NCBI GenBank assembly: GCA_951406725.2
Contig: OX597834.1
Location: 26,784,001-26,848,000 of the forward strand
Direction of reading: 5' to 3'
DNA from: Octopus vulgaris
Taxonomy: Eukaryota
DNA length: 64,000 nucleotides
Each line of letters opens with the position of its first letter. Within the stretch, counting starts at the first letter, position 1. The notes beneath the pieces are model-generated. The model was not told where the DNA came from, did not search any database, and saw nothing but the letters and a program-made list of their open reading frames with translations. Both the position numbers and the translations under genes were made by a program. This document shows, one piece after another, positions 960 to 25,740 of the stretch.

Positions 960-1222
960 ACAATTGCAGCGTGGAAGGTGTTTATAAGCCATTTAAGAAA
1001 CACACAAAAGCCGTTCGATTCACTTCAACATTTAAGTTTAGAACAGGTCGCGGATTTTAGCGAGGAAAATATTTTGACAAATTAAACTTAAATGTTGAAG
1101 TGAATCGAACGGCTTTTGTGTGTTTCTTAAATGGCTTATAAACACCTTCCACGCTGCAATTGTTTTCGTTTCAGGACACGATCTCAGATCAAATTACTTG
1201 CTATGCGAGTACATCTCCGTAA
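960..1222 (+). mobile_element. Penelope-like pLTR remnant with an 81-bp-arm inverted repeat
   Basis: 960-1040 is the reverse complement of 1083-1163; the spacer has TCGC-ggatttta-GCGA-g-GAAA (hammerhead stem II + GAAA remnant); flanked by (TA)n. Confidence 0.55.
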
Positions 1223-1399
1223 TATATATATATATATATATATATATATATATATATATATATATATATATATATATATATATATATATATATATATATA
1301 TATATATATAAGCAAGGAAAAATTGTAAAAATGCAGAATGCTCGATTGAAAGAAAATTTTAATGAAATGAGAAAATGAAAAAATATATAAATATATATT

Positions 1400-1441
1400 T
1401 ATTCAAATCGGTTTTCGTCATAGTTTGACTTATCAAGAATA
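1400..1441 (-). ncRNA. Degenerate minimal type I hammerhead ribozyme
   Basis: Minus strand: TATTC-TTGATAA-GTCAaactaTGAC-GAAA-ACCGAT-TT-GAATA; stems I and II pair; two substitutions relative to the CUGAUGA core. Confidence 0.55.
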
Positions 1442-1533
1442 GTTAGGTGAAAAAGTATATATATATATATATATATATGTACGCACGCACACACATATAT
1501 ATATATATATACATCATAAAATATTGTACTAAC

Positions 1534-1760
1534 CCAATGATAAATAGACCGGGCCCAAAGCTTGAGAATTCAAGGCTAGTTTTCCATGTGAGTGGTTTCT
1601 TGAAGACAACATTTGCTTCATCGGGGAAGGACTGTGGTACTTTTAGAATGAATTCGGTAATCTGCTTCAGCATCTGTTCGTTAATTGGTGTCAGCTGGAT
1701 CATCTTGCTCGTGCTGTCCGACAAGGACAGCCTGCCCGCTCGCTGCAACGCTTGGCCCAT
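1534..1760 (-). CDS. Probable first coding exon (exon 1534-1854) of a spliced gene continuing left of the window; 75 codons plus phase-2 Gly; product unidentified, weak resemblance to a Neuralized-homology/SPRY-like domain start
   Basis: Non-repetitive sequence; T-rich tract + TTTCAG acceptor ending at 1855; in-frame TAA two codons before gagATGG; MGQALQRAGRLSLSDSTSKMIQL...NVVFKKPLTWKTSLEFSSFGPGLFIIG; donor GG|GTTAGT at 1533. Confidence 0.6.
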
Positions 1761-1901
1761 CTCTTAGATATTCACAATTCCTAATTCGTCAAACCTGCTG
1801 CAAGTGCGTGTTTGTCCTTTTCTTCCTTGGATGTTTTATCCACACAGCTCTCGTCTGAAATATATAATAAACAAGAAAAATAATAAATTAATAAATATAT
1901 A

Positions 1902-2710
1902 GGCGCGGGCATGGTTGCGTGGTAAGAAGCTTGCTTCCCAACCACACGGTTCCGGGTTCAGTCCCACTGCGTGGCACCTTGGGAAAGTGTCGGGCCGACC
2001 AAAGTCTTGTGAGTGGATTTGGTAGACGGAAACTGAAAGAAGCCTGTCGTATATATATATATATATATATGTATATATGAGTGTGTGTGTGTTTGTGTGT
2101 CTGTGTTTGTCCCCCCCCCCAACATCGCTTGACAACCCATGCTGGTATGTTTACGTCCCCGTTACTTAGCGGTTCGGCAAAAGAGACCGATAGAATAAGT
2201 CCTAGGCTTACAAAGAATAAAACCTGGGGTCGATTTGCTCGACTAAAAGGCGGTGCTCCAGCATGGCCGCAGTCAAATGACTGAAACAAGTAAAAAAAAA
2301 ATAAATATATAGGCGCGGGCGTGGTTGTGTGGTAAGAAGCTTGCTTCCCAACCACATGGTTCCGGGTTCAGTCCCACTGCGTGGCACCTTGGGCAGCTGT
2401 TTCTATTATAGCCGCGGGCCGCTGTTTCTATTATAGCCTTGAGAGTGGATTTGCTAAACAGAAACTGAAAGAAGCCTTTCGTATAATATATATGTATGTA
2501 TTTGTGTGCTTGTCTCCCCGCCATTGCTTGAAACCGATGCTTGAGTGTTTATGTTCCCGTAAGCTAGCGGTTCGGCAAAAAAATTTCGATGGAATAAGTA
2601 CTATGCATACAAAGAATAAGTCCTGGGGTCGATTTTTGCGACTAAAACCTTTTAAGGCGGTACTCCAGCATGACCACAGTCAAATGACTGATACAAGTAA
2701 AAGAATAAAA
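1902..2710 (+). mobile_element. Two tandem family A SINEs (1902-2295, 2312-2710)
   Basis: tRNA-like head GGCGCGGGC.TGGTTG.GTGGTAAG...GGTTCAGTCCC, central (TA)/(TG) tract, 3' GACTGA.ACAAGTAAAA; both copies preceded by AATAAATATATA. Confidence 0.85.
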
Positions 2711-22050: not shown

Positions 22051-22459
22051 CTCTTTTACTCTTTTACTTGTTTCAGTCATTTGACTGCGGCCATGCTGGA
22101 GCATCGCCTTTAATCGAGCAACTCGACCCCGGGACTTATTCTTTTGTAAGCCCAGTGCCTATTCTATCGGTCTCTTTTGCCGAACTGCTAAGTAACGGGG
22201 ACATAAACACACCACCATCGGTTGTCAAGCAACGCTAGGGGGAGACAAACACAGACACACAAACACACACATGCATATATATATATATATATATTTGTAT
22301 TTATATATATATATACACATACGACGGGCTTCTTTCAGTTTCCGTCTACCAAATCCACTCACAAGGCTTTGGTCTTGCCCAAGGTGCCACGCAGTGGGAC
22401 TGAACCCGGAACCATGTGGTTGGTAAACAAGCTACTTACCACACAGCCACTCCTGTGCC
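22051..22459 (-). mobile_element. Family A SINE
   Basis: Reverse-complement family A copy with a small internal deletion. Confidence 0.85.
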
Positions 22460-23142
22460 TATATACATACATATATATATATATACATATATACAAACAC
22501 ACAGGCATATAAGTGTATATAGGTGTGTGTGTGTATATATATATATATATATATACGGTGATGTCAACAAACCAACACCAGTTATCAAGCCGTGGTGGGT
22601 GACAAAGAAAAGCACAAAGTCATACACATATATATACATATATACATTATCTATATAAGTCTATATAAGACGGGTTTCTTTCAGTTTCTTATCAACTGAT
22701 AAGGTTATATATATATGGAAATCAACTAATGAGAAAAATCCGCTGCGAATATTCCTTGTATCATGTTTTGTCTCCTTTTTCTGTCCGTTATGTTTTCGCC
22801 AAGTTTTCATCTAAGTTTTCCCTTCGTTGTGTTCTTACTGCTTAACCCTTGGAATATCCATTGTAGCGCAACGCACGCCGTTTGTTGACACACAGACACA
22901 CACACACAGACACACACACACACACACACACACACACACACACACACACACACACACACACACACACACACACACACACACACACACACACACACACACA
23001 CACACACACACACACACACCAAATCTAATTCTCTTGTTCCATTCTCTTTAGATTCCTATCATTGATTTCAAATGCTACAGCTTTTAACGACCTCCAAGGA
23101 CTGGACGGTGGTGGTATTATGCAAGGTAATTGCTTAAGTCTA

Positions 23143-23300
23143 CCTATTTCTTTATTACCCACAAGGGGCTAAACACAGAGGGGACAAACAAGGACAGACA
23201 TAGGTATTAAATCGATTACATCGACCCCAGTGCGTAACTGGTGCTTATTTTATCAACCCCGAAAGGATGAAAAGCAAAGTCGACCTCGGCGGAAATTGAA
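23143..23300 (-). mobile_element. 5'-truncated family C SINE
   Basis: Matches the 3' two-thirds of family C. Confidence 0.8.
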
Positions 23301-24044
23301 GTCTACCACCCAAGAACGGGTAGAATCCAAGCGACAAAGTTCTGCACGATACCCGTATACTCCGATTTTATATTCAACTCCCAACACATGGATCGACCTG
23401 AAACTGTGACAGAGTAAAAACCACATTTTCAAGGTAATGTACGGTTGGTATGGAACCCGGTACCTCGATGATTACATGAGCGTTGTTGACGCAGGCAACA
23501 CTACTGACACTGGAAGAAGAGAAATGGGAAGAAAAGCAAAGGCGAAGCGAGGACGGAAAGCGGGGGAAGTTGCTGTCCTTCCAACCTTCCAAACGCAGTA
23601 ATGAAGGCCGTAAAGTTTCACCTAGCTTATACCTGTTAATTAATGGTGTGGGCGCCAAAAGTGACCTCCCTTTAAATGAAGTGGCTTTACCTTAACCGAG
23701 TGTTTGGATCCCTTGCCTCTTGTTAAGTTACAAGTTGAGGGGGAAGTGTTACACACGGCTTGCTGGTTGTACTATGAACATCATAAACCAACGAGGGAGC
23801 CACCAGTGTTGTTGCGGCTGCTAGAAGCAGCAGCCAAATTTCTCTGAAATTATATTTATAATTTACCTTATAGAACGATAACCTAGGCTAAAGTGATTTC
23901 GTCCAAAGTTCGTTGCACATACGAAAGAAGAAAAAAATAAAACCGATTGGATGGTCACGGCTTGAAGGCCTTTAATCAGAATTTTGATCGGTCAGAGCTG
24001 AATTGAAGACTAAATAACGACAACAATAACATCAAAGTAGCAAC

Positions 24045-24680
24045 AGCATCGTCATCATCATCATCATCATCATCATCATCATCATCATCATCATCAATAT
24101 CCTCCTCCCTTTCTCTTCATCACCGCCACCATAATCCTCATCGTCATCAACATCGTCGTCATCGCCATCATCATAATCGTTGTCTCCATCATCATTATCA
24201 TCATCATCATCATCAACTGCAACAGCAACAACAAGCAGCAACAGTAATAACAATATCATCATCATCATCATCATCCTGACTCCGCCCACCACCACCACTA
24301 CCATCACCACCACCACCATCACCGTCATCGTCATCATCGTCATCATCATCATCATCGTCATCGTCATCGTCGTCATCATCATCATCATCATCATCATCAT
24401 CATCATCATTAATATCGTCATATTAATCATCGCTGTCACTGTCGTCGTCGTCATCATCATCATCATCATCTTCCTCCTCCTCCTCCTCCTCCTCATCATC
24501 ATCATCATCATCATCATCCTCATCATCATCATCATCCTCATCATCATCATCATCATCATTATCATCATCATCATTAATATCGTCATATTAATCATCGCTG
24601 TCACCGTCGTCGTCGTCGTCGTCGTCGTCATCATCATCATCATCATCATCATCATCATCATCATCATCAACAACAACAAC
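24045..24680. repeat. (CAT/CGT/CCT)n compound trinucleotide array
   Basis: Direct reading. Confidence 0.95.
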
Positions 24681-25594
24681 TACAATAGCTATGAAAGCTA
24701 TTTGAAGTTGAATGTCGCGGGTTCGAATGAAACAATAGGTTACACTACAGCTGCTGGAAGCAACCGTGCTCTCACCTCGACACAAACACAAAAGCATCTG
24801 GCGGGGAGGATGGAGGGCGGGCGTGGTGGTTGGGGGTTGGGAAGGGTGGTTGAGGGTACAAGGGTGGATAATGGCGGTATTTATGGCTGACTCCTTAATG
24901 TGTTTGTTTGTTCCAGTTGGTCTCTTCTCGAAGTACGCCGCACCCAGGCATTAAGCATGGGTGGGGTTACCCCGGCATAATTAGCCGCTTAAACCTTTTC
25001 CTTATTGTCGCACAATCATTTACCACGCGACAATTGGCGGCGGGGGAGTAGGTGGCTTTTATGTCTATCTGCTCATTGAAACACACAAGCATTCATACAG
25101 CCACACACACACACAAAAACACATATACACACACATTTACTTACATCTATGTGTGTGTCTCTGCGTAATTATACAAACGTATATGTATGAATATGTGCAT
25201 GTATGTATGTGTGTGTGAATATATGCACATACAGACGCAAATACTTGCTAATCATTATATGTTATTATGAAACTTGTATCATGTAAATGTAATCTGCAGA
25301 GATATGTAAGGATGCAAGTATGTGCGCTATGTGTGACGCACGTATATATTATATATGTACACACATACGTATGCAAGCCCATATATGTGCGTGTGTATAT
25401 ATATATATATATATATATATATATATATATATATATAAACAATTGAGTAGTTGAATTAATTATCTTGTTATGGATAATTCGGTTAACCGATACCTGGGTA
25501 GCAAACTCACAACAGAAAGAACACGGTTGAAGTTACGACCATAGGGCATATACTCCGTGCCTTAGTGCGGAAATTTGAAGTTTAATTTCATATA

Positions 25595-25740
25595 ATGAGT
25601 ATAGGAAAGAATGGAGCTGAGCGAAGATTTAACAAAATTCCTTTATTTTATTTTCGACATATGTTTCGAAACATATGTCGAAAATAAAATAAAGGAATTT
25701 TGTTAAATCTTCGCTCAGCTCCATTCTTTCCTATACTCAT
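25595..25740. repeat. Perfect 146-bp palindrome centred on TTTC|GAAA of a hammerhead 3' half
   Basis: 73-bp arms, no spacer, axis at 25667/25668; each arm reads GAAA-CATATG-TC-GAAAAT. Confidence 0.9.

Follow-up and report, generated by a model that had tools for sequence, protein, structure and literature searches.

The stretch analysed here, 64,000 nucleotides of Octopus vulgaris DNA (contig OX597834.1, positions 26,784,001 to 26,848,000 of the forward strand; hereafter the window), contains four inverted repeats, A, B, C and D, all recovered where the initial annotation had placed them. Judged from their sequences, they belong to four different Penelope-type families. We consider it probable that the repeats are head-to-head pairs of short copies of the 3' pseudo-long terminal repeat (pLTR), twin-primed at two fixed RNA start sites and then joined. 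The initial annotation had suggested that such inversions pivot on stem II of the pLTR ribozyme; the breakpoints of copies sampled from the genome do not support this stem II-pivot rule.

Arm geometry and joints

Copies of each family were sampled in genome order by exact matches to a 3' anchor. The host genome is 2.8 Gb and rich in microsatellites, and the sample comprised 77 of 6216 matches for family A, 72 of 400 for B, 67 of 1788 for C and 45 of 45 for D. After both sides of each locus were merged, there were 36 pairs and 31 solo copies of A, 43 and 26 of B, 44 and 22 of C, and 18 and 19 of D. Two A pairs and seven B pairs with weak partner scores, as well as the D locus of the window, were dropped before counting, which left 131 pairs. 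The 3' anchors were used for the breakpoint counts because the first DNA searches for D and B preferred copies holding the whole query; D loci from the first search were reused solely where the anchor was present. Because the C anchor extends 3 nt on the tail side, there is a bias in the C solos, of which 22 of 22 are tailed, and in the short/short pairs. Since family B is about 15% diverged, its ends are accurate to a few nucleotides, and a few joints were split wrongly (e.g. at locus L169).

In 122 of the 131 pairs, a tailed arm is combined with an arm that stops at a fixed short site, a count that the C anchor biases slightly toward tailed arms. The short arm reaches further in the 5' direction in 63 pairs and the tailed arm in 36 (p = 0.009); the two are equal in 23 pairs, and nine pairs are of the same type. 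A single fold-back cDNA must start at the tail and reach furthest, and it therefore cannot produce the majority of the pairs. Family A also has two multi-base variants of loop II, and the 387 pairs typed genome-wide comprise 298 V1/V1, 31 V1/V2 and 58 V2/V2, where self-copying predicts no discordant pairs at all. At one D locus (L024), four variants shared with locus L005 are present in one arm only. Thus, the tail/short pairing, the further-reaching tailless arm and the 31 discordant A pairs favor two separately primed cDNAs over snap-back of one. As a general rule, the self-primed snap-back of the initial annotation is contradicted by the 63 of 99 unequal pairs with the longer tailless arm, together with the discordant pairs.

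Several results weigh against two separately primed cDNAs. Unassigned inserted bases, some of them templated, are present at 78 of the 131 joints. The arms of family A pairs are mostly of one subfamily, with diagnostic sites discordant at 14 of 150, compared with 37% between loci, and the 31 discordant pairs compare with 119 under random mixing. A concordant majority is also expected from self-copying, and gene conversion may be the source of the discordant pairs. Two different templates for most pairs were considered and rejected, since the arms mostly share subfamily variants.

Microhomology of at least 2 nt is found at 24 of the 53 insert-free joints, against 10.2 by chance, often on self-complementary words without a loop, such as TTCGAA at repeat D of the window. 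Symmetric joints like that one also occur outside stem II, at L037, L228, L105, L111, L116 and L220. Given the joint microhomology, a fold-back or annealing step is possible at many loci. This excess would suit a mechanism in which a single cDNA primes itself after folding back on whatever palindrome is at hand, mostly where the template ends; endonuclease trimming would later produce the short end, and the ribozyme would play no part. Arkhipova et al. 2013 proposed self-priming of much this kind, and self-priming of Penelope-like elements (PLEs) is argued from junction palindromes in the available text of PMC3846280. It would also account for most arm pairs being of one subfamily and for recurrent identical joints at a quasi-palindrome near the 5' end of family A. 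However, a tail cannot be copied from a tailless cDNA, the tailed arm should lead and does so in 36 of the 99 unequal pairs, and the 31 discordant pairs cannot be obtained in this way. In addition, many joints have loops of 0–1 nt, which form more easily between two strands than within one. We regard self-priming of one cDNA as unlikely, though it is the best of the alternatives to twin priming.

The recurrent joint was noted separately: it is identical in about nine of the first 50 listed family A pairs (e.g. G000:C1:195971676-195971752), and it may reflect sequence-directed joining or the spread of a palindromic master.

The window repeats and their families

The arms and tails in the window are as follows.

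960–1040, minus strand: family A, tailless arm, 5'-truncated at +18, beyond stem I; no ribozyme sequence
1041–1163, plus strand: family A, tailed arm, starting inside a variant core (GAACA-G); stem II 1047–1064; G12 1065; within the arm also an ATAT stem III and the 3' strand of stem I
1164–1222, plus strand: family A, tail of about 60 nt with (TA)n at its end
5843–5902, minus strand: family B, tailless arm, truncated in stem/loop II
5904–6022, plus strand: family B, tailed arm, first base within stem/loop II; G12 5912; tail, about 5963–6022, with an internal (TA)n expansion
13478–13532, minus strand: family C, tailless arm, truncated at −1, the last base of stem II
13534–13667, plus strand: family C, tailed arm, first base at −12, where the variant core ends; stem II 13536–13545; G12 13546; tail from about 13596
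25437–25670, minus strand: family D, tailed arm, truncated at −3; tail of about 155 nt, 25437–25594
25665–25740, plus strand: family D, tailless arm, truncated at −3; TTCGAA overlap 25665–25670; G12 25668
26316–26683, unstranded: family E, fifth repeat, a tandem-forming unit of about 360 bp with the tail-plus-short build

The repeated arms of A (960–1040 and 1083–1163) are identical at 81 of 81 positions and separated by a spacer of 42 nt. Those of B (about 5843–5902 and about 5904–5963) are diverged, those of C (about 13478–13532 and about 13545–13599) have a 12-nt spacer, and those of D (25595–25667 and 25668–25740) are perfect with no spacer, the arms overlapping on the self-complementary DNA hexamer TTCGAA. 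A self-comparison of the window gave no sequence common to A, B, C and D among the matches listed. A GAAA–short stem III–NUH motif lies at the center of each repeat; a loose descriptor of this motif has 62 matches in the 64-kb window as a raw count, so the motif is common.

Breakpoints were numbered on family references with G12 as 0. The window arms end at −24 and +18 for A, about −8 and about −4 for B, −12 and −1 for C, and −3 and −3 for D. Both ends of B lie in stem/loop II. At locus A neither end does: one lies in the 5' core and the other beyond stem I. Thus, the common symmetry axis at stem II described by the initial annotation holds for B, C and D, whereas at A merely the spacer contains stem II. 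The same annotation saw one arm continue as unique sequence to a microsatellite in three repeats; all four have a tailed arm. A fifth repeat (26376–26683), absent from the initial annotation, is built like A–D, and its joint at +105/+140, that is, 105–140 nt 3' of its hammerhead-like motif, is a counter-example to the stem II rule.

What are these elements? In family A, a 530-residue open reading frame (ORF) with YSRYVDD lies about 1 kb upstream of the pLTR in locus L364 and matches Pfam GIY-YIG with 23.1 bits (cut-off 22.6); its endonuclease (EN) end is present also in L306, L313 and L316. In family D, the ORFs of locus L230 are broken and include YRDD and a GIY-YIG-like stretch; Pfam and PDB searches with the family D proteins gave no match, and their Atlas neighbors include RVT_1/HTH_animal clusters. 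In one of two long copies of family C (L361), there is a decayed piece of reverse transcriptase (RT), 38% identical to that of family D, and an EN-like piece upstream. For family B, three stretches were fetched, and one of them (L365) has a GIY-YIG-like ORF about 0.9 kb upstream that may belong to the element. On this evidence, RT/GIY-YIG ORFs are linked with A and D and present as remnants in C, with a weak link for B. An RT with a C-terminal GIY-YIG ORF upstream of the pLTR, which marks an EN-bearing (EN+) PLE, is thus found in A and D, and the inverted 5'-truncated copy with a one-sided tail, also characteristic of EN+ PLEs, in the 122 pairs described above. The initial identification of the repeats as partial pLTR inversions of Penelope type is correct.

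Other features of the families were noted. As part of the element, family A has an extended 3' region rich in (TACA)n that separates the EN stop codon from the pLTR, as in L306, L308, L313 and L316, about 1 kb upstream of the anchor. Directly upstream of one family B copy is a Helitron-type helicase-like ORF fragment (L363:4231-4780, minus strand numbering). Family E (window 26316–26683; L331–L360) is a non-coding unit of about 360 bp that forms tandems and inverted pairs, with 685 anchor matches; it has a hammerhead-like UUGAAAA core, GAAA reads GTAA in most copies, and the tail stops just before the core. By its sequence, this family seems to be retrozyme-like.

Families A–D carry a hammerhead-like fold, as the initial annotation assumed. 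The core 5' of stem II is GUGAACA in 58 of 67 copies of A, UUGAUAA in 20 of 32 copies of B, and CCGACGA in 38 and CUGACGA in 6 of 65 copies of C; the 3–8 pair is retained in the cores of A and B. The CUGANGA core of a type I hammerhead is the majority form in D only (25 of 26 copies; CUGAAGA in 19, CUGAUGA in 6). Because variant cores look coreless even in a complete copy, the initial observation that the CUGANGA half is missing is trivial for A, B and C.

Stem II spans −18 to −1 in A, −12 to −1 in B, −10 to −1 in C and −55 to −1 in D. Around the core, GAAA and NUH, the pairs of stems I and II are retained in most copies of A, C and D; in B, stem II alone was recognized, with no clear NUH in the majority of copies. 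The predicted fold of A has stems I and II (−14.7 kcal/mol, z = −3.4), and the D motif folds no better than shuffled sequences (z = −1.4). Since the stem pairs are mostly invariant, the covariation support is slight. An Rfam scan of the window had no hammerhead among the matches listed, 150 of 488, which were driven by microsatellites.

Some unusual cores were also seen. In family A (e.g. L308:1537-1586), the swapped G3–C8 core GUGAACA and UUU at the predicted cleavage triplet are fixed in a family of thousands of copies. The majority core of C, CCGACGA (window 13534–13558), has C at position 4. At 42634–42652, CTGATGA is followed after 4 nt by GAAACGTC, an intact-looking core with almost no stem II.

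Upstream clusters of arm ends

Arm ends cluster upstream of the core in three families: 23 of 64 at −52 to −42 in A (5.5 expected), with 16 of 27 solos (2.3 expected); 20 of 68 at −26 to −19 in B (9.7 expected); and 32 of 79 at −37 to −27 in C (12.8 expected). The ends in D are spread, with no clear cluster. The p-values for these windows are descriptive because the windows were drawn after the peaks had been seen. In A, the peak base −48 has the initiator-like context TCAGAT, and of 30 longer copies 24 have a TATATA that begins 30 nt above this base. For B, there is a TATATAA at −54, with CTAGTTT at the peak (−19 to −23). When the 23 family A arms that reach base −48 are examined, ten go on with the genomic C and 13 do not, and ten of these 13, four of them solo copies, have G where the element has C. 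In the available text of PMC11702581, an extra G at full-length L1 5' junctions is a copied cap.

An alternative to a transcription start at the A peak is an intron acceptor, as there is a branch-like CTAAC, pyrimidines and CAG. No donor was found between the ORF and the peak in eight long copies; hence we read the peak as a start site, though it may be an acceptor.

There are a number of points against reading the clusters as RNA 5' ends. In five of the six paired cases, the other arm could supply the extra G. The TATA run of A is the end of a microsatellite, in a setting where such runs are common. No TATA match was found for C, merely an initiator-like CTATTTT at −33, and the predicted start of D (−134) has no clear peak, with 3 of 31 arms and 3 of 9 solos. 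The peaks also coincide with edges of the motif: that of C with the 5' edge of stem I (−28), that of B with the 5' edge of the core, and a second cluster of 11 arm ends in A (−35 to −31) with the 5' edge of stem I.

These coincidences could mean that copies end at the front edge of a folded or protein-bound hammerhead (the 5' strand of stem I or the core), a roadblock rather than the RNA end: the C peak at −25 to −33 has stem I from −28, the B peak at −19 to −23 has the core from −19, and the second A cluster has stem I from −33. However, the main A peak is 15 nt upstream of stem I and shows both the spacing from TATA and the extra G, and D lacks a front-edge peak: a single arm of 31 ends in the core, and few end between −63 and −70. 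Furthermore, RNA structure blocks RT at its 3' foot, not once it has been read through. A roadblock thus seems quite improbable, more so than self-priming at palindromes.

Breakpoints relative to stem II

If stem II set the inversion point, arm ends should be concentrated there. Compared with expectation from length, stem II holds 6 of 64 ends in A (9.1 expected), 16 of 68 in B (14.6) and 6 of 79 in C (11.6), so that there is no peak in these families; the excess in D (13 of 31, 9.1 expected, p = 0.09), where stem II is 55 nt long, is not significant. With the upstream peak removed, the pooled count is 41 of 164 (35.6 expected, p = 0.18) and that of B is 16 of 48 (12.0 expected, p = 0.12), and the solo copies give 9 of 46 (9.8 expected). 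Both arm ends lie within stem II to G12 in 5 of the 131 pairs, and a complete 5' core is present in at least one arm of 85. The architecture noted in the window, a core broken in both arms with GAAA kept, is found in 1 of 34 pairs of A, 16 of 36 of B, 6 of 44 of C and 7 of 17 of D.

A stall of RT within the ribozyme, followed by snap-back of the cDNA on the hairpin of stem II, is thus very improbable. Both arms stop in or at stem II at three of the four window loci, and the D count and the B residual lean that way, but the remaining counts are near or under expectation, at least 387 family A pairs keep stem II whole in both arms, the family E joint is far from its motif, and the window D joint has no loop and lies on a DNA palindrome, like similar symmetric joints elsewhere. 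A small secondary effect of stem II may exist in D or B.

Proposed mechanism

In the twin-priming mechanism that we favor, the element's enzyme would start reverse transcription at each of the two ends left by cleavage of an AT-rich target, using two fixed RNA start sites, one yielding the tailed arm and the other the short arm. The upstream cluster would mark where transcription from the pLTR promoter begins, at the capped 5' end of the RNA. Since this start would be only 130–210 nt above the RT start sites, the enzyme would run off the template or truncate earlier, and the short-site primer, being ahead on the RNA, would tend to reach the template end first. Most pairs would be made on one RNA or on two from one source, and some on two different RNAs. 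The two cDNA ends would then be joined by short homology; fold-back of one cDNA may belong to this joining, and at most loci would be indistinguishable from annealing between cDNAs. On this mechanism, joints would often be in or beside the ribozyme because it merely lies in the short stretch just below the promoter start.

A broader statement, which we hold more tentatively and at slightly less than even confidence, is that the majority of short Penelope inserts represent the first 130–210 nt of a capped pLTR transcript, reverse-transcribed completely. A dimer would write them, priming at the two start sites from each end of the target and sometimes using two different RNAs. The extra G, the tail/short pairing and the discordant arms would then be a genome-wide record of the last steps of PLE integration.

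Comparison with known systems

An inverted truncated copy with a one-sided tail is standard for PLE insertions, according to the available parts of PMC8557442 and PMC2377424. The EN+ PLE insertion unit, as described in the portions available of PMC8557442 and PMC3846280, resembles the pairs here in its head-to-head inverted truncated copy, tail on one side, AT-rich or microsatellite targets, junction palindromes, and TATA and initiator in the pLTR. It differs in having tails of 30–40 nt, compared with about 50–155 nt here, where most inserts are pLTR-only pairs. Those portions contain no map of breakpoints relative to the ribozyme or the transcription start.

The closest biochemical system is Anolis Poseidon PAc, which in vitro cleaves and extends both strands. 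Its RT starts at two internal sites, one at either boundary of the tail, a dimer model has been put forward, and mutating the ribozyme leaves insertion unchanged (available text of PMC11167929). Both the two start sites and the extension of both strands are as in our proposal. The 5' joint is not treated in that text, and in the genomic pairs here a tailed arm is strictly matched with a short one, with some events apparently on two templates. L1 twin priming, in the text available of PMC11702581, is similar in that the second target end primes on the RNA, the joints have microhomology and full-length 5' ends have an extra G. Its arms, however, are adjacent and nearly non-overlapping, whereas here both arms copy one stretch to give an inverted duplication.

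The minimal type I hammerheads of metazoan PLEs, as far as the available text of PMC4209133 describes them, share a palindromic short helix III, an extra base 5' of stem II (A), a U3–A8 core variant (B and E) and opposite-strand pairs 100–700 bp apart. The G3–C8 of A (GUGAACA, 58 of 67) with UUU as NUH, and the C at position 4 in family C, are unlike them.

Other repeats in the window

A 37-nt GC-rich near-perfect hairpin (12765–12801) lies within a repeat related to 535–659. At 32624–33083, a 155-bp unit is present as three tandem copies with 95–97% identity, each with GAAACCGGGTA at its end. Two abundant families resembling short interspersed nuclear elements, of about 240 and about 400 bp, occur at 6119–6357, 1895–2719 and many other positions, and are partly in tandem arrays (28964–29536 and 31522–32151).

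Significance

The question addressed here is how PLE integration ends and how inverted pLTRs arise. The insertion architecture and the idea of self-priming are already published, and the stem II rule fails. In the literature covered, from which subscription papers were mostly absent and supplements excluded, we found no paper that sets out a rule for PLE inversions based on stem II, the transcription start or two templates. The later steps of PLE integration are left unvalidated in the available text of PMC11167929. What remains of value is a set of countable constraints on these steps, namely the geometry of the arms, the pairs that mix two subfamilies and the G resembling a copied cap. These three constraints favor twin priming, and the counting can be redone on any genome rich in PLEs or with the in vitro system already established.

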